From a virus, in IMG/VR virus record IMGVR_UViG_3300031566_000021: a DNA stretch of 64,000 nt; one strand, written 5' to 3'. The notes under the pieces were generated by a model. The model had not been told where the DNA came from and did not search any database. It was given only the letters and a program-made list of their open reading frames with translations. The stretch's first letter is position 1; every line of letters begins with the position of its first letter. The position numbers and the translations under genes were made by a program. Below, piece after piece: positions 21,285 to 64,000 of the stretch.

Positions 21285-21550
21285 TGGGCCAAGAGACACA
21301 AAAAGACGAGCCAATCTGGTACTACGAGTGGGACGTGGCCTCGAACGACCCCATTCGGTATGCAGGTGTCATTCGTGTCGTTGTTGAAACTGACAGGAAC
21401 GGCACCGAGCATTTGACGATCGACGACCCCAACGCTCCCGGCGGCAAGCGAAACATCAACAACGTGAAGAACATCGAGCAGTGGGACCACCGCAAAGACC
21501 TAAACGCTCAGAGCTACTGGGAACGCGCTGACGAGAGCTGGACACCGTAA
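21284..21550 (+). CDS. hypothetical acidic protein
   Basis: TAATG coupling at both ends. Confidence 0.65.
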   Translation: MGQETQKDEPIWYYEWDVASNDPIRYAGVIRVVVETDRNGTEHLTIDDPNAPGGKRNINNVKNIEQWDHRKDLNAQSYWERADESWTP

Positions 21551-24500: not shown

Positions 24501-27500
24501 TAAGCCTGACGAGGGTATTCTCACACTCACGGGTTATGCTCCTGACGTCGGGATCATCTATATTACGGAGCCTGCTGAGGACACCTTAGTCCTTACTGGG
24601 GAGATACCAGTCTCGCTGGTTGGCGAGCGCGTGCGGCCAGGCGAAGATACGCTAGCACTGACAGGAGAAATACCCACTGTAGAGATCAGCTATCGGTTTG
24701 CTCCGGCGGAAGACGTACTTGCCCTCACTGGTGAAGTACCCAGTGTTGAGCTCGATTATACCTTAAGCCCTGCTGAAGATACACTTGCCTTCAGCGGGTT
24801 GGCTCCCTCGGTTGGGATCAGCTATTTCCTCTCGCCCGGAGTAGGTGCTCTCAATATCACACAACGGCAGCCGTATATCAAGCCGACGCTGATTGGTACG
24901 TATACCACGGCTCTTCGTCAGCAGTCCCTCGCTCAGAGCGACACCGTAGATATTCCAGAGGGCACCGAGCTAGTTATCGTGGCTGTGTCTTCGTGGAACT
25001 ACTTTACCGCAGGTTTAAAGAGAGAGGGCGCAGCCGTTCTTGGCGGAAAGGACATGCTGGACATTGCCAATCTGCCCCAGACTGGTAGTGGTGTACTGAA
25101 TGGCGAGATCGTTACTAAGATCGGGTATGCAACCAGCATCTGGATAAGCTATTTACTCAACCCCGCACCGGGGCCACAGACTCTGGCATACACGTGGAAT
25201 AGTAGCTACCACATTTCAGACCCGTCGTGGGATCTCATTTATCCAGACGAGGTGACATATCTGTTCTACGCAGGTATGCGCAAGGACGGTGTTGTCGTTC
25301 GCGATGTGTCGTATGCCAACGACGAGGTGCTTATTGATCTATGGGTGGAGGTCGCAGCGACCGTCGATTCGCGCGCTACTGACTTGGTCTGCGGGTTTCT
25401 CACGTCCTATAGCTGGGTCTGGAACGACTACGACCTGCGTCCTAGTGTCACCGAGAATATCCTCACAGACGAGGTGTACACCGGACAGACGGAGATAAGC
25501 CATACCGGCCCGACTCTTGACCGTGGTGGAGAGTCGGGTGGTATCACCGTGGGTGTGGTAGACGCCCCCGGTAGTACCACCTCCACCATGAAGGGTGTAG
25601 CAGACTACACGCAGCTAGTTGTGCTGTCGCTGCGCGGAGCGAACGATCAGGACAGGTTCCTATACGGACCGGCTACGGCTGTAGCTACCTTCACCGGGGA
25701 GATTCCCACAATTGTCACCACAGGAGTAGCTCTGACGATACCTGTGGATGCCGGGATACTCGGAATATCCTCGGACGTCGTCGTCTCGGAGGCGGGTCCG
25801 TCCGTCGTAGCTCCTGTCGATGCTGCTCTCGCTATCGCAGGGGCGATCCCGACGGTGTTTGTCAGTACGTTCACGCTGCTCGGCACGGTTCTAATTGACC
25901 AATGTCTCGAGCTAATCCTCGTTGATGAGGCTACCGGCGTAGTCCCCGGAGCTCCTGTCACGGTTACCAAGTCCGTCACGGTGCCGGTTGGTACGACTCT
26001 AGCGATTGTCTTCTCCGCCCAGTATAACGCGGTAGAAAATATCTCTGTCACGGGTATTTCGCTCGGCGGCCAAGCTCTGGAGACGGCTTCCCTTGATGGG
26101 GCGCTGGTGGTTCTTTTTTGGGGTCCGTATATAGCGTATCTACGCAGTCCGCCCACCGGTGCGCAGGATCTGGCTGTGTCGTACAACGTCCCGATCTCGC
26201 AGTCGCCCCACATCCACGTAGCCTTCTACTCGGGTACTCACCCTACCTTTGCCCCGCGCGGAGTAGCTTTTGACCGCCACGGCTATTTCCCGGGCGAGGC
26301 AGGGTCGGTAGATATCGCCTCGAGGTCCGACGATCTGGTCGTGGCCGGGATAGTGGGGTGGTACGGGTTTACTGACGTCGCTCCTGCAGGGTCGAATCAG
26401 CACGTAATAGCACAGGCAAACTCAGGACCTAGGTACTGGCCCTTCACCTTCGACGGCTTCGACGCCTACAACGACCCCCACTGGGACGGGTACGAGCACA
26501 CCTACTCGTCCTTCATAAGGGAGTACCCGCCCGCCGACGGTCTATCTACCATCCACAATACAGTCTCCGGATCTGAGGGCTTCACGACTATCGCCGCGTT
26601 GGCGTTCCCGTCTATCAACTCGACGGAGCAGGTGTTCTGGGTGGCTCCGGATACGCTGGCCTTCACAGGGGAGATCCCGTCCTTACTAGTCGGTGAGATT
26701 GTTGTTCCGGACGAAGATACCCTCGTCCTTACTGGCCAGATCCCAGTAGTAGACGTCCAGTCGTTCGACAAGGTATTCGAGCCTGCTGAAGATATACTAG
26801 TTATTGCTGGTGAAGTTCCTGTTGTCCAAGCCGGACAAGGGGCTTTCCCACAACCAGGCGTTGGTACACTAGCTATCACAGGTCTCGCGCCTAGTATCGA
26901 GATCAGCTATACCTTCAAGCCTGCTGAAGATACCCTACAGATTACAGGAGAGCAGCCCACAGCTTCGGTTAATCTCCTGGTCGCTCCGGGCCCTGACACC
27001 CTCCTCCTCGTAGGCGAGCAACCCATTGTCTCCCAGGGCCTCGTCTATACTCCGGGTGCCGGGGCCCTCCAGCTAACTGGTCAACAACCAAGTGCGGAAA
27101 TTGACTACACCATTGAAGTGCCGGTTGGTAGTTTGGCCTTCACTGGTCGTATCCCCGTATCGCAATCCGGAGATGACCAAACATCCCAGCCGGATGAAGA
27201 TGTACTCCAGATTATAGGCCTCGTCCCATCGGTCGAGGTTAGCTATCGCTTCACACCGGCAGAAGATACACTATCGCTCACCGGCCTCACACCTCTATGC
27301 ACGATCCAGCTCTACACATTCCCAGGAGTAGCTGCACTCGCGTTCACAGGTCAGGAGCCTAGCAACGATGTAAGCTACACCTTTACTCCGGGCGAAGACA
27401 CCCTCGACTTTACGGGTCTCGTCCCAGTTGTAGCTATCGGCGTTATTCGTCAGCCGGGAGAAGATACCCTAGCCCTCACAGGCCAACAGCCGAGCGTAGG

Positions 27501-28773
27501 AATCGACTACGTCTTCTCGCCGGCTAACGATGCGCTGGTCTTTACGGGTGAGGTACCGATTGCCCAGTCGGGAGATGACCGGACGGCTCAGCCGAATGCA
27601 GGCACCTTAGCTATTACAGGCCTAGCACCCTCGGTTGAGATTAGCTACAGGTTCGTTGTACCTAATGATGTGCTTTCCATCTCGGGCGAGCAGCCTAGTG
27701 TGGAGATCGACTATACGATCGCCGTTGGAGAGGATACACTAGCGCTGACAGGTGAAATCCCAGCGGTCAATGCGACCACGGGAGTAACGGAACAACCTGG
27801 TGCGGGTGTTCTTGTTATTACCGGCGAAATACCCGTTGCGGCTAGTACTGAGAACCAGTATGTAGCCCCGGGCGACGGCGCGCTATCGCTGAGTGGAGCC
27901 GTTAGTACAGTCGTAGTAACGGACAATCGAGACGCACAGCCTGATGCTGGCGTTCTAAACATAGTAGGACTTGCGCCGACGATTGGTGTTGGTATCGTCC
28001 GCATACCTGATAATGGCATTTTAGACCTAGTTGGTCAGACGCCTGTAGTTGCTCGGACTGAACACCAATATCCAGCACCAGGAGTTGGAACTCTTGATCT
28101 TACCGGATTTACACCATCAACGGCCGGAGAAGTCTTCGCCAGTCCTGGGACAGATGTTCTTTCCATCGTTGGTCAGGAACCAGTACTATTCCGCACAGAA
28201 GGCGTCTGGGAGCTGCCGGGAGTTGGTACTGCGAACATTACAGGTCAGATACCTGTACTCGAGCTATCTGACTCCTGGGTTAACTTCCCGGATACAGGTA
28301 GTATTACATTCGCCGGGTACAATCCAGTACCATCTACTAGCAACAATCTACAGCTCGGTCCAGACAGGGATATCCTGGCTATTACAGGCCAGCAGCCGAA
28401 TATCGTAATAGACCACAGGTTCTATCCTGCAAGTGATACGCTAGCCCTCACAGGACAGCCAGTAGAAATAGCACGCGTCTTCAAAGTCCCCGCTGGGGCC
28501 TTAAGCTTCGTCGCATATGTACCCGAACTGCTCGTCACGGGCGATAGAAAGGCTCTCCCGTACGTCGATCATCTCCGGATTACCGGTCTAGCTCCAGTCG
28601 CTTACGTAACGCCAGTCGACGTAATAGTGTATGTAGACATGGACTTCGCGTCCGACATTGTTAAGGGCATGATATTTGCTGATCCTGCCCTACCAGTTAA
28701 CGAGGTTACCTTCGACCAGTACGACGGAGCGGACCCCGGAATTAAACAGACTATCACTTTAAGCGGGAGTTAG
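21550..28773 (+). CDS. giant repeat-containing fibre-like structural protein (2407 aa)
   Basis: Dozens of ~23-26-aa repeats P.(E/D/G).L.(L/F/I)TG..P.V with four inserted aromatic-rich globular domains. Confidence 0.8.
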   Translation: MAVRLNTAASSNTDSFSYSVSAGNNRCLIVGITQEVASPSQPTVAYGGQSMTHVVGIAVGDATDQRVDLFFLNDAGIQAASGTTIVVTGEPAAFTINAASYENCVQTTPTVTDTHASTGAGTTTLDITSSDTSVAVCLGGMGNSGTVAWSGGVTEQTEQVDVGATTTGSLADEEVTTGAAENYVGTWTTANRRAGCALILANLPAEGITGVVPSEFDMDTADVDVDGLNFGASQGSATVYLSDANTLAGSANEVDITSAVNTWSDTQVNLDLTQLSAGELASLHTLGPGQRFVIILTDASDEYGSAAITLHRPQGFQMVLGAATPGTTTQRLTGMSGTFGGGRIEETAAQNPSTTNTDVANNGNREDVWSIEAKVNSRAVQYDFRVLYDGEVADTITQTPQVTISAGENIPVGAGALTLVGHAPTASVASSIAVDAGSAAITGWAPTVSVASSIAVDDGALALVGLVPTLALSDHITRAPAEDVLAFGGLVPSIVIGVVFTPGVPVVQKLGAVDIGTFGLPLEGTFTKEGTVFPVSVPIVLDHVDFNLRKEGSPTGNLVIEVYLCNEGNSYVGYYPAYLDSPVATSTTTLDVSTLTGTLTLYTLDFAGEVLPPGIYAFVATYNDGDPDNYVETQIFFNRNPNAIGGYQQIIEYTEPDDPFSWYPSFGGWDSGTQPATSDGTEMLVFVRGLSIMGQLPRLVVTELLPVGGAGTITIEGLAPTLSDSLHPNIAVDKADLVLATYAPTLDFKDKYVFPDAAEHDFILHPQTVGFFNFIGIDSRGEVFRSPEGGILRRVDFLLAKNGGPVGTVIARLYAADTGDFDALTANPANGASPLASSTNTFDAATDISLSANTFRFDFAGYRLEPNTPYAIVVEFTGSGVGDHLTMYVWQPKTFPGYHTRGFPSGAWNQVTNTNTTMRLVVESLHISGQTPVVGINLTSISPAQDTLLFAGLAPSLLLQPSQPSEGTLVFTGFAPTVLAAPVVKPDEGILTLTGYAPDVGIIYITEPAEDTLVLTGEIPVSLVGERVRPGEDTLALTGEIPTVEISYRFAPAEDVLALTGEVPSVELDYTLSPAEDTLAFSGLAPSVGISYFLSPGVGALNITQRQPYIKPTLIGTYTTALRQQSLAQSDTVDIPEGTELVIVAVSSWNYFTAGLKREGAAVLGGKDMLDIANLPQTGSGVLNGEIVTKIGYATSIWISYLLNPAPGPQTLAYTWNSSYHISDPSWDLIYPDEVTYLFYAGMRKDGVVVRDVSYANDEVLIDLWVEVAATVDSRATDLVCGFLTSYSWVWNDYDLRPSVTENILTDEVYTGQTEISHTGPTLDRGGESGGITVGVVDAPGSTTSTMKGVADYTQLVVLSLRGANDQDRFLYGPATAVATFTGEIPTIVTTGVALTIPVDAGILGISSDVVVSEAGPSVVAPVDAALAIAGAIPTVFVSTFTLLGTVLIDQCLELILVDEATGVVPGAPVTVTKSVTVPVGTTLAIVFSAQYNAVENISVTGISLGGQALETASLDGALVVLFWGPYIAYLRSPPTGAQDLAVSYNVPISQSPHIHVAFYSGTHPTFAPRGVAFDRHGYFPGEAGSVDIASRSDDLVVAGIVGWYGFTDVAPAGSNQHVIAQANSGPRYWPFTFDGFDAYNDPHWDGYEHTYSSFIREYPPADGLSTIHNTVSGSEGFTTIAALAFPSINSTEQVFWVAPDTLAFTGEIPSLLVGEIVVPDEDTLVLTGQIPVVDVQSFDKVFEPAEDILVIAGEVPVVQAGQGAFPQPGVGTLAITGLAPSIEISYTFKPAEDTLQITGEQPTASVNLLVAPGPDTLLLVGEQPIVSQGLVYTPGAGALQLTGQQPSAEIDYTIEVPVGSLAFTGRIPVSQSGDDQTSQPDEDVLQIIGLVPSVEVSYRFTPAEDTLSLTGLTPLCTIQLYTFPGVAALAFTGQEPSNDVSYTFTPGEDTLDFTGLVPVVAIGVIRQPGEDTLALTGQQPSVGIDYVFSPANDALVFTGEVPIAQSGDDRTAQPNAGTLAITGLAPSVEISYRFVVPNDVLSISGEQPSVEIDYTIAVGEDTLALTGEIPAVNATTGVTEQPGAGVLVITGEIPVAASTENQYVAPGDGALSLSGAVSTVVVTDNRDAQPDAGVLNIVGLAPTIGVGIVRIPDNGILDLVGQTPVVARTEHQYPAPGVGTLDLTGFTPSTAGEVFASPGTDVLSIVGQEPVLFRTEGVWELPGVGTANITGQIPVLELSDSWVNFPDTGSITFAGYNPVPSTSNNLQLGPDRDILAITGQQPNIVIDHRFYPASDTLALTGQPVEIARVFKVPAGALSFVAYVPELLVTGDRKALPYVDHLRITGLAPVAYVTPVDVIVYVDMDFASDIVKGMIFADPALPVNEVTFDQYDGADPGIKQTITLSGS

Positions 28774-53803: not shown

Positions 53804-54292
53804 ATGGCAAAGAAAGACAATGCAGCACCCGCAGAAGCCTCAGAAGCCGCCCAGATGGAAGGTGGTGCTGAGAGTGGCGCCCTCGTGGTCGATCTCTCCG
53901 GCGTTTCGGATGAGACCGAACTTCCGGTAATCCCACGGGGGATCTATAATGCGGTCGTCGACGAACTGACCTTTGGCTACAGCCAGAGCTCCGGCAATCC
54001 CATGTGGACCTGGAGGTTCGAGATCCCGGACGGTGAGTATACCGGTCGTAAGCTGTTCTTCCACTCACCTTTCGTGGAGAGCATGCTGCCGCGGGTCAAG
54101 AAGGTCCTCTCGCGCGTTGCGCCAGAGCTGCTGAGCGGTCCATTCGATCCGGAGAAGATTGCGGACGAAGGGGTTCTTCTCGGTAAGGCCTGTCGCATTC
54201 GGGTGGAGATCAAGCCGTATGAGGGCAAGGCACGGAACAACGTGCGTGATGTTCTCGCCTCGGAAGAGGGCGGCGATTCGCAGTTCCTGTAA
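53804..54292 (+). CDS. single-stranded DNA-binding protein (DUF669)
   Basis: IP.G.Y.A.V, S.SGNPM...FEI..GEY.GRK.F, RNNV; acidic tail. Confidence 0.85.
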   Translation: MAKKDNAAPAEASEAAQMEGGAESGALVVDLSGVSDETELPVIPRGIYNAVVDELTFGYSQSSGNPMWTWRFEIPDGEYTGRKLFFHSPFVESMLPRVKKVLSRVAPELLSGPFDPEKIADEGVLLGKACRIRVEIKPYEGKARNNVRDVLASEEGGDSQFL

Positions 54293-54312
54293 GCTACCTA
54301 CTGTACGACTTT

Positions 54313-54408
54313 AGGGATGAACGTGTCAGTAATGGTGCGATAGAGGCCACAACGGAAGTGAACACAGCGCGAACTGCTTCCCATCCCTTCCTACCTTTGA
54401 AAGGATAG
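54313..54408 (+). ncRNA. candidate structured leader of queC
   Basis: Closing stem agggatg/catccct, GUAA-capped hairpin, ggaag/cttcc stem, RBS-occluding hairpin. Confidence 0.3.
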
Positions 54409-54414
54409 TCCAAC

Positions 54415-55134
54415 ATGGACACAACTACCAAGGCCTACGTACTGCTCTCAGGCGGAGTAGATTCATCTACCTGTCTGGGATTCGCTATACGAGAGGTCGG
54501 ACGTCCTCTTGTTACGGCGTACTCCGTCGACTATGGTCAGCGGCACGTTAAGGAAATGGATCACGCAAAGAAGGTTGCCGCCTACTTCGATGTTCCTCAC
54601 ATAGTCTTGGCGCTCCCGGGTATTCCAAAAGTCATGCTGACGGATCCTGAAGCGGAAGTACCAAATGCTGCGTACGCGGACCTTAAGGGGGTTTCACCAA
54701 CATACGTTCCATTCCGAAATGGTCAGCTGATTTCAAGACTAGCTGGAGTAGCTGCTCACGACATCGAGCAACACAACCAGAAGTCGGAGTTCTACGGAAC
54801 GGACGAAAGATGGAAGGGCACATTGTACTTCGGTGCGCATGCGGAAGATGCTGCCGGAGATGCTTATCCGGATTGTAGGTTCGATTTCGTAGGCTCGATG
54901 GCAGCTGCTGTGTACATCGGGTCATATCATTCGCTCCGCCTTCGTGCTCCGCTCATCGAGATGTTCAAGGATGACATCATCTTGGCTGGGATCAAGCTCG
55001 GAGTTCCTTATCACCTGACATGGTCCTGTTACAAAGGCGAGGAGCTTCACTGTGGAACCTGTCCCACCTGCCGAGCAAGAAAAGACGGATTCCGAAAAGC
55101 CGGATTCCCCGACCCCACTCACTACGCCGTCTGA
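54415..55134 (+). CDS. queC: 7-cyano-7-deazaguanine synthase
   Basis: LLSGGVDS, YVPFRN, YPDCR, TWSCY...HCGTCPTC. Confidence 0.95.
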   Translation: MDTTTKAYVLLSGGVDSSTCLGFAIREVGRPLVTAYSVDYGQRHVKEMDHAKKVAAYFDVPHIVLALPGIPKVMLTDPEAEVPNAAYADLKGVSPTYVPFRNGQLISRLAGVAAHDIEQHNQKSEFYGTDERWKGTLYFGAHAEDAAGDAYPDCRFDFVGSMAAAVYIGSYHSLRLRAPLIEMFKDDIILAGIKLGVPYHLTWSCYKGEELHCGTCPTCRARKDGFRKAGFPDPTHYAV

Positions 55135-55284
55135 AAAGCCGACGAAGGTAACAGTACCTCTTATGCCCCGATTTATGGGTGTAGGAGGATTTTCGATTAA
55201 GCTGATGACGGTCCAAGTTCATATGGCCATGCGAGATTGGGCGATTTGGGCTCCGCGTCTGGAAAAGGAAAGGAAGGATAAGAA

Positions 55285-55791
55285 ATGATCACAGCAGAGC
55301 GATACCACGACATCTCTTGCGGGCATCGAGTCTTTGGGCACGAGAGCAAGTGTGCTCATCTTCACGGCCACAACTACCGCATCCATTTTAGGTGCGCCGT
55401 ACCAGCTCTCGATAAGGTCGGGAGAGTGATTGACTTCAGCGTCATGAAGTCCGAGCTGTGTATGTGGGTGGAGGACAACTGGGACCACAAGTTCCTTCTG
55501 TGGCAAGAAGACGATTGGGGTACTACCCTATTCGACTTGGATCCTACTCTCGTCATCCTCCCATTCAATCCGACAGCTGAGAATATGGCTAAGCATCTCG
55601 TAGAGATTGTCGGCCCACTACAGCTGCGGCATTCGGATGTGAACCTAATCTCCTGTACCGTCGAAGAGACCAGGAAGTGCGGAGCTACCTATCTTTGGAG
55701 TGGACCACTCGAGGCTCTGGAAAGCATTAAGGCGCGTGCTCGAGAGTCCGAGAGGAAGTCCTTGGAGGTGGCAAATGCCCAAAAAGGCTAA
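55285..55791 (+). CDS. queD: 6-carboxytetrahydropterin synthase
   Basis: CGHRV...C.HLHGHNY, NPTAENMA, VEET. Confidence 0.92.
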   Translation: MITAERYHDISCGHRVFGHESKCAHLHGHNYRIHFRCAVPALDKVGRVIDFSVMKSELCMWVEDNWDHKFLLWQEDDWGTTLFDLDPTLVILPFNPTAENMAKHLVEIVGPLQLRHSDVNLISCTVEETRKCGATYLWSGPLEALESIKARARESERKSLEVANAQKG

Positions 55792-56407
55792 GGAACCTAT
55801 GGATGGGATGCTCTGGGAGGTTCTCGGTCCAGAGGTTGATAAGATGCGAGAGGTCCTCGAGCTCCTCGGTATCGACCTGGAGGACGAGAACTTTCGTGAA
55901 ACTCATATCCGCTTCGTCAGGTACCTGAAGGAGTATCTTCAGCCCTACGACGTCACCGATGTCCTGGGAATCGACTTCGCAAACCAGAATGCCGTGGGGG
56001 GACATGACTCCTACAAGGGGTTAGTGGCTCAAACGAACATTCCATGGAATACCATCTGTCCACATCATCTCCTTCCTGTTATCGGTCGCTGCCATATCGG
56101 CTACATTCCTAACGATCGTGTTGTTGGGTTGTCCAAACTGACTAGGTTAGCACAGGCTGTGGGTCGTGAGAAGCCACGGATGCAGGAGACGTGCACAGAT
56201 ATCATCGCCGACCAGTTTTCGGAATTGGTCAAGCCTAAAGGTATCGTGGTTGTCATTTCTGCTATCCATGGCTGTATGTCTGGAAGAGGCGTACTAGCGC
56301 ATGAGACACCTACTGTCACATCGACGGTTCGAGGGGTCTTCCGGGATGTCCCACAGGCTCGAGCAGAGTTCTTCGAGCTGGTTAGGATGAACCACGTCAT
56401 ACCCTGA
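55775..56407 (+). CDS. folE: GTP cyclohydrolase I
   Basis: ICPHHLLP, VGLSKL.R, MQE, HGCMSGRGV, TVTS..RGVF. Confidence 0.95.
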   Translation: MPKKAKEPMDGMLWEVLGPEVDKMREVLELLGIDLEDENFRETHIRFVRYLKEYLQPYDVTDVLGIDFANQNAVGGHDSYKGLVAQTNIPWNTICPHHLLPVIGRCHIGYIPNDRVVGLSKLTRLAQAVGREKPRMQETCTDIIADQFSELVKPKGIVVVISAIHGCMSGRGVLAHETPTVTSTVRGVFRDVPQARAEFFELVRMNHVIP

Positions 56408-56411
56408 TAAG

Positions 56412-56456
56412 AGCATCATAAGCCCCTTGATGACCCATATCGAGGTATGCTATAAT
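56412..56456 (+). promoter_or_regulatory. promoter with AGCATCA box variant
   Basis: AGCATCA 56412-56418, 8 nt, TTGATG, 18 nt, TATAAT 56451-56456. Confidence 0.75.
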
Positions 56457-56478
56457 TATAGAAAGGAGGCTTTCTCGA

Positions 56479-57282
56479 ATGTCGCACTATGCTCCCGTCG
56501 TCCCCACTGAAGTCGCTGCGTGGCTCCAGGACGATATCGACTACCTCGGTTCGTATCATCTCATACTGGCGCACGATGTGCTTGACAAACCTGGGGAGTA
56601 TAACCAGATATACAACAATGGTGTCCGGAAGCTGTACAAGGACTCATTCATCATTATGGACAACTCGGTTGTCGAACTCGGTTCGGCAATGGGAATGAAA
56701 GACCTTCTTGAGGCTTGCAAGATCGTTAAGCCAGACTGTCTCGTAATGCCTGATGTAATGGGTGACGGGTTTGCTACCAGAGAGCTGGCAGCAGACTTCT
56801 GCAAGGAGTTCGCTGGGGCGGCTGTAGGGAATCCTGATTTCGACCACATTATCCTAATGGGTGTTGTCCAAGGAGTGTCTCTCGAGGAGTGCTACCACAC
56901 GGCGAGCCTGTATTACACGCTGCCTCTAGTGCGTCACATCGGTGTCCCTCGGGTACTGACGAAGCAATTCGGCACCAGAGCGCAGGTAGTACATAAGATG
57001 ATCTCCGCTCCTCTATTCGATCGGATCCATCTGCTTGGCTTCTCGGACAACCTCCTGGATGACGTCGCTTGTGCTCGTATGCCTGGAGTTGCTGGGATCG
57101 ATTCCGCGGTTCCAGTTCGAGCTGGGCTAGCTGATATCATGCTGACTATTGAGGAGGAGCGTGACTATGGTCCTCGTGGAGACTTCTGGGACACCCTCAT
57201 GGAGATGTGCGATGCGCATGATCATAGCATCACCACGAATATCTCCATGTTCCGTTACTGGATTGGAGACACAGCCCGGTGA
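56479..57282 (+). CDS. dpdA: divergent TGT-fold DpdA-like 7-deazaguanine DNA transglycosylase
   Basis: IMDNS..E.G, MPDV..D...T, MGVVQG, IHLLG, GIDSA.P in TGT order; lies inside the que cluster. Confidence 0.65.
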   Translation: MSHYAPVVPTEVAAWLQDDIDYLGSYHLILAHDVLDKPGEYNQIYNNGVRKLYKDSFIIMDNSVVELGSAMGMKDLLEACKIVKPDCLVMPDVMGDGFATRELAADFCKEFAGAAVGNPDFDHIILMGVVQGVSLEECYHTASLYYTLPLVRHIGVPRVLTKQFGTRAQVVHKMISAPLFDRIHLLGFSDNLLDDVACARMPGVAGIDSAVPVRAGLADIMLTIEEERDYGPRGDFWDTLMEMCDAHDHSITTNISMFRYWIGDTAR

Positions 57283-59801
57283 CAGGAGAAGTCATCCCGA
57301 TTAAGAGGGCTCTTGGGGTAGCTCCAGTCCCGGAGATCCCCAAGTTCATCCCCGAGTTATGCCCTAATTGTCCTCAGGCTGGAGGTCGTAAAGTTGGCGC
57401 TCGAGGCAATCTAAGCGCTCCTCTGGTCATCCTAGGTGAGTCACCCGGAGCTCAGGAACTACGATTCGGAGCCCCTTTTGTTGGTCCTAGTGGTGAACTG
57501 CTAGGTAAGTGTTTGCCGGAGGACTTCGACCTGGATAGAGATGCCTTCATCATCAATGCGATGCAGTGTAGGCCTCCTAAGTACAGCGACCAGAACAGAG
57601 CTAAGGAGTGGAAGAGCCGAGCCTGCTCCGCTTGTCACAATCGCGTGATAGGCCAGATACTATCACACCCGAGGAAGTGTGTCTTAGCCCTAGGTGGTTG
57701 GGCAAATGCTGTCCTGACTGGTGACCATGACTTCAAGATTACCCAACGGAGGGGCGAGCCCTATCCTTTACTGATCCGGGATGAGATCACTGAGGAGGTC
57801 ACCGATGAGGTGATTGTTGTCCCAGCTGTGCATCCGGCCTTTCTTCTTAGAGGCTCTGGTAATCCGATCTCCTTCAAGGCTGATCTCCGGCTGGCTCTCT
57901 CGCTAGCATACCCTGACCGAGTGTCGCATGCGGATGTTCGATCGGACGTCGAGTGGGAGGATCCTGATGTTGCTGTTATGGAGACGCTACCCGATTTACG
58001 TCAGTTCTGGCACAGGTTAAGTGCACAACAAATATACGGAACTATTGAGGTAGCCTGCGATATTGAGACATCGGGCTTCAATGCTTATACAGACTATATC
58101 CTTTCGATAGGCTTCTATACCCCCTTGTTAGAGGACGCCGGCTTCATCATTCCAGGACGGAATCTCGACGATGAACTGTACCGACAGCAAGTCCGACAGA
58201 TATTTAAGATGCCTGGTATTCGCTGGATTTGGCAAGCAGGTAAATTCGACGAAGAGTTCCTGATCGAGAAAGGGCTCATTGACCTTGATGCGGAGATCGT
58301 CCATGAGGATACCTTACTACTGTCCTACGCAATGTCAGAGGCTACAAGGGATCATGACCTCGATGAGCAGGCAAAGAACGATCTAGGAGCACCCAAACAT
58401 AAGGACATGCTGAAGCAGTGGGTGCCTAAGAAGTCGGACTCATACGCTAAGGTTCCTGAGCCGATTCTATTCGACTATCACGCCAAGGACACTAAGAAGA
58501 CTTACCTGGTCTGGAAACATAAGAGGCCTCAGGTACGAGCTGACGCTCACCTAGAGAAGCTGTATACCCAGACACTTATACCTGTGAGCCATCTGCTTGT
58601 TAGGATTCAACGGTATGGAATTCATGTCGATTGGGATTATGTCAGGATCAATCGAGAAGGAGCTACCCAGGAAGATCTCGATAGCGGGTTAGTGATAGAG
58701 CTCGAACCTGGTCTGGAGTTTGAACTCGAAGACACCTTAGGCACTTTGGAGGGGGTGGCTGGCTGGAGAGTCAATCCGAATTCCCCGGCTGAAGTATCGA
58801 AGCTGTTGTACGATCAGTTCAGGCTCGTTATCAAAGGACGTCGTCCGCAGGACACTACGAAGGAGACCTTTGATAAACTTCCTAACCATCCTGCAGTAAA
58901 CCTTATCCGTCGGTATAGATCCTACACCAAAATGCTGAGCACTTACGTGCAGGCAATCGAGGTAAGGGCTCTTGAGGATCGGATCCATACTACATTCAAG
59001 CTCCATGCTACTACTACTGGTAGGCTATCATCTAGTGAGCCGAACATCCAGAACATACCCAGAGGCGCTCGCTGGAGGCGGATGTATTGTGCTAGACCTG
59101 GGTACGTATTGATTGAGGCCGACTATAACTCCGCTGAATTACGGATGTTGGCTGTACTATCACAGGATGCTTTCCTAACTGGCGTATTCCTAGACGGCAA
59201 GCGGAACCTTCACGACGAGGTTAGCATCGCTATGTATGGGGTGAACTTCGATATCGACCAACGCATACGTGCGAAGGCAATTAACTTCGGTATACCCTAT
59301 GGGAGGGAGGCCTTCTCCGTCGCCCAGGAATTCGACATTTCGGGTAGGGAAGCACAAAGGCTAATCGATGCGTGGTTCGAGCGTGCTCCTGAAGCGGCTC
59401 TGTTCCTTAAGAAGTGCCGACGTGCTCCCCTCCAAGGGAAGACACTGATCACAGTGTTCGGACGCAAACGCCGTCCTGGGGTTGTTTCTTCGGAACGGCA
59501 GCACAGTTTGCAGAATGAGTTTGCCAATTTCCATATGCAAAGTCCGATTTCCGACTTCACCCTCCATTCAGCCCTCGACCTTATAGATCCGCTCGAGGAG
59601 CTCGGAGCTGGAATTGTGAACTTAGTACATGACTCGCTACTCATCGAGTGCCCTAATAATCCTGAGGCTATCGGACAGGTGAAGTTGATGGCCAAAACCG
59701 TAATGGAGCATGTACCGACGCAGTGGATTAACACACCGATCAAGTTTGCTGTTGACCTCAAGGTGGGAACACATTGGGGATTACTCGAGAAGGCCGACTA
59801 A
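57279..59801 (+). CDS. polA: family A DNA polymerase with N-terminal family-4 UDG-like domain and 3'-5' exonuclease
   Basis: CPNC, GESPG, FVGPSG, CRPP, HPAF; DIETSG; TGRLSSSEPNIQNIP, DYNSAELR, KAINFGIPYG, VHDS. Confidence 0.95.
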   Translation: MTGEVIPIKRALGVAPVPEIPKFIPELCPNCPQAGGRKVGARGNLSAPLVILGESPGAQELRFGAPFVGPSGELLGKCLPEDFDLDRDAFIINAMQCRPPKYSDQNRAKEWKSRACSACHNRVIGQILSHPRKCVLALGGWANAVLTGDHDFKITQRRGEPYPLLIRDEITEEVTDEVIVVPAVHPAFLLRGSGNPISFKADLRLALSLAYPDRVSHADVRSDVEWEDPDVAVMETLPDLRQFWHRLSAQQIYGTIEVACDIETSGFNAYTDYILSIGFYTPLLEDAGFIIPGRNLDDELYRQQVRQIFKMPGIRWIWQAGKFDEEFLIEKGLIDLDAEIVHEDTLLLSYAMSEATRDHDLDEQAKNDLGAPKHKDMLKQWVPKKSDSYAKVPEPILFDYHAKDTKKTYLVWKHKRPQVRADAHLEKLYTQTLIPVSHLLVRIQRYGIHVDWDYVRINREGATQEDLDSGLVIELEPGLEFELEDTLGTLEGVAGWRVNPNSPAEVSKLLYDQFRLVIKGRRPQDTTKETFDKLPNHPAVNLIRRYRSYTKMLSTYVQAIEVRALEDRIHTTFKLHATTTGRLSSSEPNIQNIPRGARWRRMYCARPGYVLIEADYNSAELRMLAVLSQDAFLTGVFLDGKRNLHDEVSIAMYGVNFDIDQRIRAKAINFGIPYGREAFSVAQEFDISGREAQRLIDAWFERAPEAALFLKKCRRAPLQGKTLITVFGRKRRPGVVSSERQHSLQNEFANFHMQSPISDFTLHSALDLIDPLEELGAGIVNLVHDSLLIECPNNPEAIGQVKLMAKTVMEHVPTQWINTPIKFAVDLKVGTHWGLLEKAD

Positions 59802-59821
59802 CTAACTGAAGGCAGAGCCAC

Positions 59822-60097
59822 ATGAAGACGGATGACCTTGTTTCTATCCCTGATCTTGTTCCTGAACTGGAGACGTATCTCTACGTACATCGTTGCTGGC
59901 AAGACCATGACCTCGCGAAGAGTGAGAAGATGTCGGTTGAGCGAGCTATCAAGCTGTTACGCGAGTGTGCTATGGAGGCAACCAAGAAGCGAACAGGGAC
60001 TCGATTGGCAACTCGTTGTTACAAGCTGCTTGATGCTATTGTCTGCACAAACGTCTCGCCTGTTGATAACGTAGTTGAACTCCCGCGCAGGGGCTAG
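59822..60097 (+). CDS. hypothetical protein
   Basis: 91 aa between polA and queE. Confidence 0.65.
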   Translation: MKTDDLVSIPDLVPELETYLYVHRCWQDHDLAKSEKMSVERAIKLLRECAMEATKKRTGTRLATRCYKLLDAIVCTNVSPVDNVVELPRRG

Positions 60098-60900
60098 TGG
60101 TCATGTTTGGTACAAATCCCGTTCGAAAACAGGATCTGCGTCTAGACCAACCAGACGTAGGAACTCTCGATGTCCATGAAATCTTCCCCACCATTCAAGG
60201 AGAGGGTCCTTTCTCTGGACAGCCTTGTATCTTTCTCCGGCTGTGGGGCTGCAATCTACGGTGCTACTTCTGCGACACAGACTTCGAGACGCGGCGCCTT
60301 AAGATGGATCCGCATAGGATCATGGAGTCCATCGAGAGGACTGCAATGATCAAGGTCAACACCAAGCTGATAGTCATTACAGGTGGTGAGCCGCTGCGCC
60401 AGAACATTCTGCCTCTTTGTGTGTTGGCCGCTACTATGGGCTGGGATATCCAAATCGAGACCGCTGGTACTCTTTGGGTTCCTGGCCTAGAGGAGTTGAT
60501 CCATCAAGGGAGGCTGACTCTTGTGTGCTCCCCTAAGACGGGTAAGGTGGATGATAACGTCGCTAGGTGGTGTACAGACTGGAAGTACCTTGTCCGTAAA
60601 GGCCAGAACAACGAGATCGATGGTCTACCTGACTACTCGACCCAGGAGGAAGGGAAGAAGCTATCGCTGTACAGGCCCACTAAGGACTCCGACACTATTT
60701 GGCTCCAGCCTTGTGAGGAATATGCCGTCGCTAAGATTCCTGTTGCCACTATAGGAGTTTCTGGTACGGACCAAATGGTCACTTCGAAGGCTCGGAACGA
60801 AGGGCGGTCGGAGGAGAACATTATTGCTTGCGGAGCTATTGCTATGGCGCATGGCTACCGAGTGAGCCTCCAAATGCATAAGTACCTTAAGCTTCCCTAA
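60097..60900 (+). CDS. queE: 7-carboxy-7-deazaguanine synthase (radical SAM)
   Basis: EIF.TIQGEG, CNLRCYFCDT, ITGGEPL, IETAG, SPK, SLQMHK; start GTG 60097 or ATG 60103. Confidence 0.95.
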   Translation: MVMFGTNPVRKQDLRLDQPDVGTLDVHEIFPTIQGEGPFSGQPCIFLRLWGCNLRCYFCDTDFETRRLKMDPHRIMESIERTAMIKVNTKLIVITGGEPLRQNILPLCVLAATMGWDIQIETAGTLWVPGLEELIHQGRLTLVCSPKTGKVDDNVARWCTDWKYLVRKGQNNEIDGLPDYSTQEEGKKLSLYRPTKDSDTIWLQPCEEYAVAKIPVATIGVSGTDQMVTSKARNEGRSEENIIACGAIAMAHGYRVSLQMHKYLKLP

Positions 60901-60910
60901 ATCGAGGTCG

Positions 60911-60955
60911 ACCATCATTAGACTCTTGCGGAACCCCTTGTGGTTGATGTATAAT
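60911..60955 (+). promoter_or_regulatory. promoter with ACCATCA box
   Basis: ACCATCA 60911-60917, 8 nt, TTGCGG, 18 nt, TATAAT 60950-60955. Confidence 0.8.
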
Positions 60956-60993
60956 GTTATTAAGTTCACAAGTGTTTTCGAAAGGAAGTTCTT

Positions 60994-61419
60994 ATGAAAC
61001 TAGTACCCGTTAATCCGGACGACTTTCCGGACATTCGAGAAGGTCGCAGAGGGCGTGTGTCATATCCCTTACTCAAGTCGTTCCTGGAGACCAACGAGAG
61101 GCTCGTTATGGTCGATCGCACAGGGATGCAGCAGTCCATGCAAGGACTGACGTCGTGCTTGGGATCGTATATCCGCTCACATGGTTTGCCGATCAAGTTG
61201 ATAACCCGATCGGGGCAGATCTATTTGGCCAGAACGGATATTGACTCCGAGACCAATGAGATCGCTAGTCAAGGTACCATTGAGGACTACTCGAAAGCTG
61301 TTCGTGCTCCGGGTGGTTCCTCTAATGTGGTCGAGATCGAGCACCCTGGGGCGACGCCAATCAATGCAAGCGAGGTGAAGACCCGCTTCGCTGTTGAGAA
61401 GGATCAGGTAGGTAAGTAG
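60994..61419 (+). CDS. hypothetical protein (possible DNA-binding)
   Basis: AAGGAAG RBS; basic RRGR patch and compact alpha/beta N-terminal half. Confidence 0.7.
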   Translation: MKLVPVNPDDFPDIREGRRGRVSYPLLKSFLETNERLVMVDRTGMQQSMQGLTSCLGSYIRSHGLPIKLITRSGQIYLARTDIDSETNEIASQGTIEDYSKAVRAPGGSSNVVEIEHPGATPINASEVKTRFAVEKDQVGK

Positions 61420-62067
61420 ATGTCTGCTGATCCTACCAAGGTGTTGGTAGTTTGTGCCCGTAGATATAATGGGCATGAACTCTGGACTGCTCTCGGTGTT
61501 ATGCAGGAGGCAGGCCTAGAATTCGAGGTTGTATCCCAGGCAAAATACATCGAGGACGAAGTTACGGGGCAACCCAATGTACTCGAACGGAAGGTCTGGG
61601 ATGTCGATCCTTCGGAGATGACCTCGAAGTTCGGAGCTCTTATGCTTGTCTCCGGTAACATGGGAGATACAGAGGCCTACTGGAAGGATAACCATGTCCT
61701 AGGGCTAGTAGAGGCTGCCAATGCACCCCTCCAGCCTATCGCAGCCATCTGCTGTTCCGTTCCAACGATCCGGAATGCAGCACGAGGTAAGGCTGTAAGC
61801 TTCTTCCCTCTTATCCGATCGCGGGAACTTCTGACTAGAGCAGGAGCTATCCTACGTACCGTAGCTTGGACTGTTGATCAGAACTTGGTCACGGCCGAGC
61901 ATCAAATGGCTACCCAAATGTGGGCGGAGGCCTTTGTCGGTATGATTTACGGACGTGAACCTCCAAAGCCGCTACATGATTCTGGATACGTCCCTAAGGG
62001 TCGTCTTGTAAGAACGCCGAAGGTCATCGACGATATGCGTAGGGCAGCCAAGAAGACTACCGAGTGA
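61420..62067 (+). CDS. DJ-1/PfpI family protein
   Basis: N-terminal Glu (GHEL), AL.LVSG, nucleophile elbow IAAICC, VDQNLVTA. Confidence 0.85.
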   Translation: MSADPTKVLVVCARRYNGHELWTALGVMQEAGLEFEVVSQAKYIEDEVTGQPNVLERKVWDVDPSEMTSKFGALMLVSGNMGDTEAYWKDNHVLGLVEAANAPLQPIAAICCSVPTIRNAARGKAVSFFPLIRSRELLTRAGAILRTVAWTVDQNLVTAEHQMATQMWAEAFVGMIYGREPPKPLHDSGYVPKGRLVRTPKVIDDMRRAAKKTTE

Positions 62068-62591
62068 GATACGACCGAGAGTGTTTGTACGACGTCCCGT
62101 GGCAGTTGCTGCGGTTGCAGATGGTAGGTGGTTGGACTATGAGGTCCGGCATATCTACCAATCTAGAACGGCTAAGTGTCTACGTCGATCTGGGGTTCAT
62201 CGGGAAAAACTCGCCTGAGCGGATCTGGAGAGCCCTCAACTGCCTCAATGCCGTTCTCCTCGGGTATGGTCAAGGAGCTGCTCTAGGAAGAGATCCTCCG
62301 GACACTAAGCCATTAGTGGTAGCTTCTCGAGACCTGTTGAGTCTAGAGCACCAGGAAAGGCCTCTAGACACCCTCAAGAAGTGGGATTGGGAACTTGTAC
62401 GGAATGATATGCAGATGCCCACGTGGACCTACTCGGATCTGCGGTACCTCCGAACTAACCTACAAAGACGACTAACATCTGCTAGGAGACGTAAGGTCGA
62501 TCCGAAGGTAACGAGACCTGAGCTGGTGCGCTTCCTAGATATGCTCAACACCGAATTACTTCGCCGTCGGAGGAGCAACCATGGCACGTGA
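62064..62591 (+). CDS. hypothetical protein
   Basis: GTGA-coupled 175-aa ORF. Confidence 0.65.
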   Translation: MRYDRECLYDVPWQLLRLQMVGGWTMRSGISTNLERLSVYVDLGFIGKNSPERIWRALNCLNAVLLGYGQGAALGRDPPDTKPLVVASRDLLSLEHQERPLDTLKKWDWELVRNDMQMPTWTYSDLRYLRTNLQRRLTSARRRKVDPKVTRPELVRFLDMLNTELLRRRRSNHGT

Positions 62592-63090
62592 TAAGCGAAT
62601 GTACTACAGCGTTGGAGCTGATGAGCCGCGTCCTGTTGGTGTTGCTGTCCATCTTGATATGCTGCTTAGTGACGAGATCCTTGGGTTTACTGGCACTCGC
62701 GAGATCCCTACAGGAGAACAGGCTGCTAGGATGGTCGAGTTCATACCGATAGCTGCGGAGATACACCACGGATGCTGTGTAGGGGCCGATGAGGCTGCTC
62801 ATGCTATCGCTATGAACAATCAGGTGGCGATAGTTAAACATCCACCTACTGATAAGAGCCAGATGGCTCGTACCTGTACAGGCGGAGAAGAGCGTACTCC
62901 TCTACCTTACCTTGAACGCAACAAGAGGATAGTGTTCGAGTCTAGTCTACTGTTGGCAGTACCCAAGAGTGTGGTCGAAGAGCAGCGAGGATCAGGTACT
63001 TGGGCTACTATTCGATATGCAAGGGGGCTCTACCTACCCCACATCATCATTTACCCAGATGGGTCTTACGACCTAGTAGTCTATCAGTGA
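62581..63090 (+). CDS. SLOG superfamily (YspA/DprA-like) nucleotide-binding protein
   Basis: GFTGTR, HHGCCVGAD, YLERN..IV, SGTWATIRYA. Confidence 0.8.
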   Translation: MARDKRMYYSVGADEPRPVGVAVHLDMLLSDEILGFTGTREIPTGEQAARMVEFIPIAAEIHHGCCVGADEAAHAIAMNNQVAIVKHPPTDKSQMARTCTGGEERTPLPYLERNKRIVFESSLLLAVPKSVVEEQRGSGTWATIRYARGLYLPHIIIYPDGSYDLVVYQ

Positions 63091-63108
63091 CCTAGGAGGT
63101 CAAACGCC

Positions 63109-63450
63109 ATGCCATATTGTCTGAAAACCGGTGGGATTATTATCGATGAGAGTCATGCTTCTGCCATGGAGTGTGACCTCCATATCGAGGGGGACTGCCT
63201 CATCGCTATAACCTGTCCCTCTATGGATCGGCACACTCTCGCCGACGGGGATAAGGAGCGGATAACCGCTTTCATTCCGGTTGGTACGGACTTCTTCTAC
63301 AGACATCATACAGGGCCTTTCGGGGTGCTCGTGATAGAGCAGCGTAATGTACAGCTGACTCAGCTGATGTGGGAGCATATCATGAAACACTACTCCTGGG
63401 CACAGCTTCAGTTCTCCTTCGTAGCTGGGAGTCGTAATGGCCGACTCTAA
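63109..63450 (+). CDS. hypothetical protein
   Basis: AGGAGG RBS. Confidence 0.7.
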   Translation: MPYCLKTGGIIIDESHASAMECDLHIEGDCLIAITCPSMDRHTLADGDKERITAFIPVGTDFFYRHHTGPFGVLVIEQRNVQLTQLMWEHIMKHYSWAQLQFSFVAGSRNGRL

Positions 63451-64000
63451 ACCCTTTCGGCCGTTGTTGGCAGCTGAGACTCCTGTAGACCTTGAGGTTC
63501 TGGAGAAGCTCAAGCACTACCCATTGTTGTGCTCGACTAAGCTCGACGGTATTCGGGCTATCGTCAGGAATGGGGTTTTGGTCAGTCGAACGATGAAACC
63601 TATTCCATCACAGTTCGCCCAATACCACTTCGCGATGCCGGAGTTCGAGGGGTTCGATGGCGAGCTGCTGGTACCCGAGCAAACTGGTCGAACGATCTAC
63701 CACGATACCTATTCATCCGTGATGACCCATAAGTGTACGGACCCCTTGATCTTCAAGGTATTCGACCGGATGGAGCCTGGGAACTTTGATACACCCTACA
63801 TAAGCCGTCTTGAGGCCCTAAAGGAAATCCTGGAGTACAACGACGACTCCGAGTTTCCGGTAGAATTAGTCGAACAGATCATGGCCTACGACTTAGATGG
63901 CATACTACGTCTCGAGGAAGACGCCCTACGTAATGGGCACGAAGGTCTCATCATGCGTCGTCCTGATGCTCCTTACAAGCAGGGGCGTTCGACGTTGAAC
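63437..64000 (+). CDS. lig: ATP-dependent DNA ligase (truncated by window end; not in ORF track)
   Basis: ATG 63437, open to 64000: TKLDGIR (motif I), FDGEL (III), FKVFD (IIIa), EGLIMR (IV), YKQGRST. Confidence 0.92.
   Translation, partial: MADSKPFRPLLAAETPVDLEVLEKLKHYPLLCSTKLDGIRAIVRNGVLVSRTMKPIPSQFAQYHFAMPEFEGFDGELLVPEQTGRTIYHDTYSSVMTHKCTDPLIFKVFDRMEPGNFDTPYISRLEALKEILEYNDDSEFPVELVEQIMAYDLDGILRLEEDALRNGHEGLIMRRPDAPYKQGRSTLN

Follow-up and report, generated by a model that had tools for sequence, protein, structure and literature searches.

7-Deazaguanine modifications of phage DNA block restriction enzymes and Cas9, and the eight known derivatives with their enzymes form a recent catalogue that still has gaps, for example the route to 2'-deoxy-7-amido-7-deazaguanosine (dADG) in several phages. 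QueF and QueF-L use a cysteine to attack the nitrile of the precursor base 7-cyano-7-deazaguanine (preQ0), and the DJ-1/PfpI superfamily is a family of proteins whose physiological substrates are notoriously disputed. Several tailoring enzymes (QueF/QueF-L, ArcS, Gat-QueC, DpdL, DpdM and DpdN) are encoded by an optional extra gene in a folE-queD-queE-queC-dpdA cluster and diversify the final base, and none of them has the DJ-1/PfpI fold (PMC6884629, PMC10516641). Gat-QueC fusions are a known route to 7-formamidino-7-deazaguanine (G+) (PMC10516641), and DpdC converts 2'-deoxy-preQ0 (dPreQ0) to dADG on the DNA, independently of the DpdA/B transglycosylase (PMC10164549). Within the DJ-1 superfamily, isocyanide hydratase hydrates a carbon-nitrogen triple bond through a cysteine thioimidate (10.1101/524751, PMC12570138). 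Here we describe a DJ-1/PfpI-type gene, DJ1 (61420-62067), in a stretch of viral DNA of 64,000 nucleotides (IMG/VR virus record IMGVR_UViG_3300031566_000021), referred to below as the window. Together with the gene directly upstream of it, orf141, DJ1 forms a real, conserved and apparently phage-only two-gene module that is not described in the literature searched and that stands beside a que/dpdA cluster.

In the initial annotation, DJ1 was treated as a lone enzyme encoded 520 nt downstream of queE. The distance is right (queE ends at 60900), but the gap is not empty: it holds orf141 (60994-61419), whose TAG stop abuts the ATG of DJ1. The notion of a lone enzyme has to be given up, since each of the 41 related viral contigs (29 from a single-protein search and 12 from a family-motif search) has an orf141 homolog immediately before DJ1, and in most of these contigs the two open reading frames (ORFs) overlap by 4 nt. 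The same arrangement is found in P0188, a DJ1-family member of only 35% identity, where an orf141 homolog (hhalign 99.6%, E 5e-25) overlaps the start of the DJ1-family gene. Judged by gene order, orf141 is thus an obligatory partner of DJ1, and the two genes together, not DJ1 alone, make up the functional unit.

A structural model of the complex points in the same direction. The orf141-DJ1 model reached an interface score (ipSAE, interaction prediction score from aligned errors) of 0.75, with individual runs at 0.75, 0.79 and 0.73, and the best control scored 0.00; the mark used for this score is reached by 58 of 80 solved complexes and by 2 of 110 mismatched pairs. At least 71% of contacts are common to the runs, and the predicted local distance difference test score (pLDDT) of the partner is at least 63. 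In the predicted interface, orf141 residues 114-138 lie on helix A and the adjacent hairpin of DJ1 (residues 18-30 and 37-55), adjoining the invariant His19-Glu20 loop, and the invariant Arg131 of orf141 contacts the invariant Trp22 of DJ1. At the level of a prediction, the model supports binding of orf141 and DJ1 to each other.

For the partner itself, sequence searches of Pfam, PHROG, NCBIfam and PDB gave no match. In its model (pLDDT 72.7), an alpha/beta domain of 85 residues is followed by a variable, disordered linker and a helix at the C-terminus. The N-terminal domain (residues 1-85) is basic, with a median isoelectric point (pI) of 9.3 and an invariant RGRVSYP..K.F.E motif, and the remainder of the protein is acidic; the C-terminal helix (residues ~121-138) is conserved as EV..RF..EK...TK. 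A Foldseek search of the fold against PDB returned nothing at E <=0.001, a further structure search gave only matches of Z <=5.6 to winged-helix (Stn1, CtsR, SarR) and R3H domains, which are within noise, and BFVD and the ESM Atlas contained only stand-alone uncharacterised phage proteins of 80-90 aa.

The catalytic subunit would be DJ1, which matches the Pfam family PF01965 (DJ-1_PfpI) over residues 7-173 (E 5.2e-10; 39.8 bits, cut-off 26.6). This is its sole Pfam match, and no GATase Pfam family matches it at E <=0.01. The AlphaFold model, built with 66 family representatives, has a pLDDT of 95.6 and a predicted template modelling score (pTM) of 0.88, and it superimposes on structures of the PfpI/YhbO/DJ-1 type with Z 23-26 and a root-mean-square deviation (rmsd) of 1.8-2.2 over ~168 residues. 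Single matches include 4hcj (Z 26.1, rmsd 1.8, 168 residues), PfpI of P. aeruginosa (Z 24.9) and DJ-1beta (Z 23). Isocyanide hydratase (3non) follows at Z 19.1, rmsd 3.7 and 13% identity, and true class I glutamine amidotransferases reach only Z 9.1-9.8, compared with Z 15-26 for members of the DJ-1/PfpI superfamily.

The glutamate and the nucleophilic cysteine (AICC) that the initial annotation had reported as intact are indeed present, as Glu20 (YNGHELW) and Cys111 (AAICCSVPT). Both are predicted to be catalytic; they are invariant in 17 of 17 close homologs and are kept in at least 90% of the 66 cluster representatives, down to 23% identity. Cys111 occupies the nucleophile elbow of a flavodoxin-like alpha/beta fold and matches Cys100 of PH1704 in the alignment, and Glu20 corresponds to the conserved acidic residue of the first beta-alpha loop (Glu18 of DJ-1). 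Further invariant residues are Asp46, Glu47 and Thr49 (D-E-x-T), the SGNM..TE motif and TAE.QM. The only candidates for a triad histidine are His19, present in the core family only, and His161, which is Asn, Ile or Ala in other members.

The nearest solved structures, PfpI/YhbO/PH1704 (peptidase C56, deglycase) and DJ-1 glyoxalase III, have the conserved cysteine and first-loop glutamate in common with DJ1. The differences lie elsewhere. DJ1 scores far below the family cut-offs, with 46.7 bits against TIGR01382 (cut-off 139.05) and 16.6 bits against NF040823 (cut-off 330) for PfpI/YhbO, and 23.3 bits against TIGR01383 (cut-off 131.25) for DJ-1 glyoxalase III. The residue after the nucleophile is Cys112, invariant in the core family and Ala or Ser in distant members, whereas PH1704 has His101 in this position (ICHG versus iCas). 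A C-terminal extension of ~40 aa, the restriction to phages and the pairing with orf141 also set DJ1 apart. DJ1 is a member of the DJ-1/PfpI superfamily and appears to lie outside every characterised subfamily.

How widely is this protein distributed? Among 1.84 billion representatives, 647 matches to the DJ1 family were found at E <0.001 and 68 at E <1e-30, after which the list fades into ordinary PfpI proteins of 170 aa; a set of 5.8 billion proteins contained 489 close DJ1 homologs, none informatively named. The family is a discrete clade. A scan for the motifs YNGHELW and AICCSVPT that covered 185,579 prokaryote species, with one genome per species, revealed no motif-bearing relative, and a prophage or cellular origin of the pair was rejected as far as this motif-based scan reaches. 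GenBank phages gave no match either by megablast with the window region 54000-64000 or by tblastn with DJ1 and orf141. On these searches the pair seems to be confined to phages. Longer fused forms of DJ1 or orf141 were not found by word-based searches, which are weak evidence on this point.

The distant family members P0188, P0180 and P0193 lie on contigs too short to show the que context. P0193 (499 aa; GCA_044232495.1, 4.8-kb contig) keeps the CC motif and carries a C-terminal domain of ~300 aa with FxGxG-like and DPPK motifs, which by language-model comparison resembles clusters of D12 N6-adenine DNA methyltransferases (ESM Atlas score 0.95); a gene of 120 aa overlaps its start. The D12-like fusion is a weak pointer to action on DNA. 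Another deviating copy, at G002:C1:12969-13577 in the record of L025 (a complete 64-kb phage), matches the DJ1 profile with one in-frame TGA, which may represent either stop read-through at the gene end or a disrupted copy.

A key question raised by these data is whether the pair is tied to 7-deazaguanine synthesis in other phages as well. Co-occurrence with que/dpdA genes had been proposed as a check of the initial annotation, and the check turned out in favour of a link to the 7-deazaguanine pathway. At least one que gene is present on 37 of the 41 pair-bearing viral contigs, and the other four are fragments or were not searchable. All 11 whole pair-bearing records with a completeness of 45% or more encode QueC, and it is missing only from three fragments (29-38% complete); DpdA-like genes were detected in all five pair-bearing records tested. 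Genes of the que/dpdA set stand on either side of the pair in 15 contigs, in the arrangements queC-pair-queD-queE-folE-dpdA-polA or queC-queD-pair-queE-folE-dpdA, and in ~10 contigs queC is immediately upstream of the pair. The pair borders the cluster on one side in L053 (dpdA-pair-polA) and in the window (queE-pair), and in L043 and L052 the contig ends just upstream of it. Because a quick tree of DJ1 shows the order queC-pair-queD at four or more separate positions, the embedded state is either ancestral and long kept or was re-formed repeatedly.

The reverse relationship does not hold. The phage most closely related to that of the window is G011 (68.6 kb, 100% complete, with terminal repeats). 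It is 60-72% identical to the window in queC, queD, folE and polA, and its locus (queC-queD-queE-folE-dpdA-polA-orf91-ligase) contains no trace of orf141 or DJ1. Four more complete or near-complete que-bearing genomes with the same replication module yielded no DJ1 in a profile search that recovered four of four known positives. Moreover, the pair was present in none of 107 arbitrarily sampled QueC loci, ~26 of which share the full module. On the QueC tree, phages with the pair and phages verified to be without it interleave with supports of 98-100: the window is sister to the pair-less L039/L079 (support 100), L005/L008 are sister to the pair-less L145 (support 98), and L026 and L023 also stand among pair-less genomes. 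In L204, L228 and L272, which have the same module, DUF669 runs to polA without a que gene, and the pair is absent too. Thus, the pair appears to imply que/dpdA, que/dpdA does not imply the pair, and several gains or losses seem to have taken place. As far as gene content can tell, this is the distribution pattern expected of an optional tailoring or accessory module.

The closest cultured relatives, the Brevundimonas phages vB_BpoS-StAshley and MaInes, have ~69-kb genomes and an order as in the related clusters (exonuclease, queC, queD, queE, small ORF, DpdA-like gene, polA; region read in StAshley). The annotated StAshley region is without orf141 and DJ1, and neither StAshley nor MaInes gave a tblastn match. 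The kinship with Brevundimonas phages points to Caulobacterales as possible hosts of pair-bearing phages. A small "putative DNA-binding protein" of StAshley and a small ORF of L026, both located upstream of queC, were considered as relatives of orf141 and rejected (hhalign probability <5%).

In line with the initial annotation, in which no enzyme of a known preQ0 fate was visible, QueF, ArcS, Gat-QueC and other known tailoring families were absent among the scanned ORFs of the window. The scan covered 29 ORFs of at least 120 aa, chiefly in the replication module (42-64 kb) and the initial 6 kb, with at most a minority of those in the structural region (14-41 kb), and also orf91. In five near-complete pair-bearing genomes, ArcS (PF17884, DUF5591) was not found, QueF (PF14489) gave only sub-threshold matches that fall on FolE, and QueC has 220-300 aa and no Gat fusion. 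Since neither QueF nor ArcS occurs in these five genomes, the cluster is without another known tailoring enzyme, and besides DJ1 no conserved catalytic candidate is left unexplained in clusters without QueF/ArcS, although a few small conserved ORFs without assigned function are present in some of them. No paper linking DJ-1/PfpI proteins to phage deazaguanine systems was found in the literature, and two articles on phage 7-deazaguanines (PMC6884629, PMC10516641) do not mention PfpI, ThiJ, protease or amidase proteins.

Taken together, we consider it somewhat probable that the pair is functionally part of the 7-deazaguanine pathway. Our favoured reading, put forward tentatively, is that orf141 and DJ1 constitute a two-subunit accessory enzyme of phage 7-deazaguanine DNA modification. 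That Cys111 attacks the preQ0 nitrile, probably in DNA, is possible and is proposed with slightly more reserve; here we infer the substrate, its site in the DNA and the product. In the proposed mechanism, the phage would make preQ0 via FolE, QueD, QueE and QueC, and a DpdA-like transglycosylase would swap it into the DNA. DJ1 would act as the catalytic subunit, in which Glu20 would tune the Cys111 thiolate as in other DJ-1/PfpI enzymes. The thiolate would then add to the nitrile carbon of preQ0 to form a covalent thioimidate, which would react with water to give the carboxamide (7-amido-7-deazaguanine, ADG, or dADG) or, with an amine instead, an amidine. As for orf141, it would serve as an adaptor whose conserved C-terminal helix clamps helix A of DJ1 beside the YNGHELW loop, and its basic N-terminal domain with the RGRVSYP loop would lead the enzyme to the substrate, for which dPreQ0 already incorporated into DNA is the likeliest candidate.

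Such an action would parallel that of bacterial DpdC (dPreQ0-DNA to dADG-DNA), of which DJ1 would be a functional analogue: an add-on enzyme working after or beside DpdA and encoded together with dpdA and the preQ0 genes. Unlike DpdC, DJ1 has the DJ-1/PfpI fold and a small partner protein, is apparently found in phages only, and its activity is a predicted one. Isocyanide hydratase resembles DJ1 in the superfamily fold and in the combination of an elbow cysteine nucleophile with an acidic residue; on the other hand, it is only 13% identical, ranks structurally below the PfpI/YhbO/DJ-1 types, takes an isocyanide rather than a nitrile as substrate, and acts alone on small molecules, with no orf141-like partner. 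A still more specific proposal, which we regard as doubtful, is that the pair edits the 7-substituent of the deazaguanine after its placement in phage DNA, using cysteine chemistry on the nitrile and a small DNA-binding adaptor, that it is non-orthologous to DpdC, ArcS, QueF-L and Gat-QueC, and that its product is dADG or an uncatalogued derivative. If true, a DJ-1-fold module would add a new enzyme class to the 7-deazaguanine pathway and might reveal a new base, and the chemistry of the DJ-1/PfpI superfamily would be extended to nucleobase nitriles.

Several observations weigh against a role in 7-deazaguanine modification. All carriers are related siphophage lineages with a broadly similar replication module (PD-(D/E)XK, AAA_24 and DUF669, together with polA), so that much of the co-occurrence could stem from shared ancestry. 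A distance of 3-18 kb separates the pair from the que genes in ~23 of 42 contigs, where it stands beside the SNF2 helicase or within a few genes of the DNA ligase, and this location fits a general role in DNA metabolism just as well. Among fetched stretches, DJ1 was found in 2 of 13 que-bearing loci versus 0 of 69 loci without queC, the two being near-identical contigs; many of the 69 stretches are short, and most were not shown to lack que genes outside the stretch. The fold does not discriminate function, as the nearest structures are of the PfpI/YhbO/DJ-1 types and isocyanide hydratase ranks lower. The case for DNA binding by orf141 consists of its basic pI and the weak winged-helix/R3H-like matches, and the methyltransferase-like fusion is known from a single protein on a short contig and has neither a Pfam nor a PDB sequence match. 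Finally, the GenBank phage searches found no cultured phage carrying the pair. Because about half of the contigs place the pair by helicase or ligase genes, a serious rival, although in our estimate an unlikely one, is that the pair travels with the replication module as an unrelated passenger, engaged in DNA or nucleotide maintenance or in stress protection (as a deglycase, a glyoxalase, a protease or an amidase acting on damaged nucleotides or proteins), and that synteny and ancestry are merely shared with the que genes in one broad siphophage group; the affinity of the fold to deglycase and protease types agrees with this as well. Against a passenger role, no contig of sufficient completeness was seen to carry the pair in the absence of queC/dpdA, phages that have the module and no que genes are also without the pair, and gain or loss took place repeatedly within que-bearing lineages, with several positions inside the que cluster. 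A generic stress or glyoxalase gene, which the initial annotation had offered as its own alternative, has become less plausible, because DJ1 scores below the NCBIfam cut-offs for PfpI/YhbO (46.7 vs 139 bits) and DJ-1 glyoxalase III (23.3 vs 131), the histidine beside the cysteine of PfpI-type enzymes is replaced by a second cysteine, and the lack of any motif-bearing relative among the scanned prokaryote genomes would be odd for such an enzyme. Even if the link to the que genes is one of synteny only, the pair is still a well-defined new phage protein pair without assigned function.

Two further explanations assign a different activity to DJ1. It could be an ammonia-releasing amidase or glutaminase subunit that feeds either QueC, a PP-loop ATPase dependent on ammonia, in the manner of GuaA-type amidotransferases, or an amidine step leading to dG+, with orf141 as the coupling protein. 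Class I amidotransferases have a fold distantly related to that of DJ-1/PfpI proteins (Z 9-10), QueC resembles PP-loop synthetase domains that pair with glutaminases, queC is immediately upstream of the pair in the ~10 contigs mentioned above, and the Gat-QueC route to G+ (PMC10516641) offers a precedent. We nevertheless consider ammonia supply, also suggested in the initial annotation, improbable, because true class I amidotransferases are structurally remote (Z 9-10, against 19-26 for the DJ-1/PfpI structures named above), a conserved histidine that would complete a Cys-His-Glu triad seems to be lacking (residue 112 is a cysteine, and family members have other residues in place of His161), and close relatives run the same QueC without the pair. 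In addition, DJ1 has no GATase match in Pfam, and its predicted partner is orf141, not QueC. Very improbable, in our opinion, is a non-enzymatic or counter-defence function, in which the pair senses or sequesters a host factor or shields modified DNA and the Cys/Glu site serves for binding or redox sensing. Phage accessory and counter-defence genes typically show such a sporadic occurrence in closely related phages, and orf141 has no recognisable catalytic fold; yet the conservation of the nucleophilic cysteine, the glutamate and several pocket motifs across the 66 representatives argues for catalysis, and there is no direct evidence of a link to defence, the PADLOC library not having been scanned.

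The genomic setting of the pair is summarised in Table 1. The window represents most of a ~68 kb tailed-phage genome, with terminase, portal, capsid and lysis amidase genes and a replication module comprising a primase-helicase, an SNF2 helicase, a PD-(D/E)XK nuclease and AAA_24 and DUF669 proteins. These are accompanied by queC, queD, folE and the DpdA-like gene, and then by a fusion of uracil-DNA glycosylase (UDG) and PolA, queE, orf141, DJ1, two ORFs without assigned function and an ATP-dependent ligase.

Table 1 Coordinates of the que/dpdA cluster, the orf141-DJ1 pair and the ORFs that follow it in the window
Feature	Position	Strand	Evidence or remark
queC (preQ0 synthase), C-terminal Cys cluster	54415..55134	+	PF06508 E 1.5e-48; TIGR00364 134.5 bits
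queD (6-carboxytetrahydropterin (CPH4) synthase, 6-pyruvoyltetrahydropterin synthase (PTPS) family)	55285..55791	+	PF01242 E 2.6e-22
folE (GTP cyclohydrolase I)	55700..56407	+	PF01227 E 2e-45
DpdA-like DNA transglycosylase candidate	56479..57282	+	no Pfam/NCBIfam match; position next to polA
queE (7-carboxy-7-deazaguanine synthase, radical S-adenosylmethionine (SAM) enzyme)	60097..60900	+	PF04055 E 8.9e-10
orf141, partner gene, 141 aa	60994..61419	+	conserved pairing with DJ1
DJ1, DJ-1/PfpI-fold enzyme, 215 aa, ATG start	61420..62067	+	PF01965
orf175 and orf169 (175 aa, 169 aa), no assigned function	62064..63090	+	overlaps of 4 and 11 nt

According to Pfam, FolE, QueD, QueE and QueC are all encoded within 54415-60900. 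QueC also has weak NCBIfam matches to GMP, NAD and Asn synthases. The queD and folE ORFs as listed overlap by 92 nt, the listed folE start being a GTG at 55700; the real start is probably located downstream, because the Pfam match of FolE begins only at residue 48. The DpdA-like candidate is 36-37% identical to unannotated proteins in the same position in StAshley and MaInes, and it is conserved in the dpdA position beside polA in all related clusters. Its end overlaps the beginning of the polymerase gene, which starts 4 nt inside it; this gene (57279-59801, + strand) encodes a fusion protein in which an N-terminal domain of the uracil-DNA-glycosylase superfamily (PF03167, residues 43-194) precedes the 3'-5' exonuclease and PolA domains.

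In the window, queE stands directly upstream of orf141-DJ1, whereas in the closest relatives it is located between queD and folE. Joint import of a queE-orf141-DJ1 cassette was considered and rejected, as the window queE is closest to that of a pair-less relative (51% identity, versus 40-44% to other pair-bearing phages); a rearrangement is therefore likelier. Downstream of the pair, orf175 has no homolog at any related locus, and a homolog of orf169 was found only in L045. Both form an operon-like string with the pair in the window and, on the loci compared, do not travel with it elsewhere.

A scan for promoters and terminators in 59700-63600 revealed none above chance. A perfect TATAAT preceded by TG is nevertheless present at 60945-60957 (+ strand), within the 93 nt that separate queE from orf141 and ~40 nt before the start of the latter, with no qualifying -35 hexamer; it might drive orf141-DJ1-orf175-orf169 independently of queE. 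In the structural region of the window, an ORF of 2407 aa (21550-28773, + strand) has no Pfam domain at E <=0.001 and is presumably a tail or tape-measure-type protein.

The que clusters of the related phages contain additional genes. Three families of small conserved ORFs of 100-176 aa with no Pfam match (L002:14919-15449, L006:12837-13160 and L002:12821-13294, + strand) recur in many of the clusters that contain the pair, in either the folE-dpdA or the queC-queD interval, and could be further components of the pathway; the window is without them. In the queD-pair-queE arrangement, a DUF6378 gene (L019:9272-9658) lies directly upstream of orf141. Genes for homing endonucleases of the LAGLIDADG type (weak PF00961 matches) are inserted in several que clusters, at L012:8974-9357, L047:6871-7272 and L048:13290-13703.

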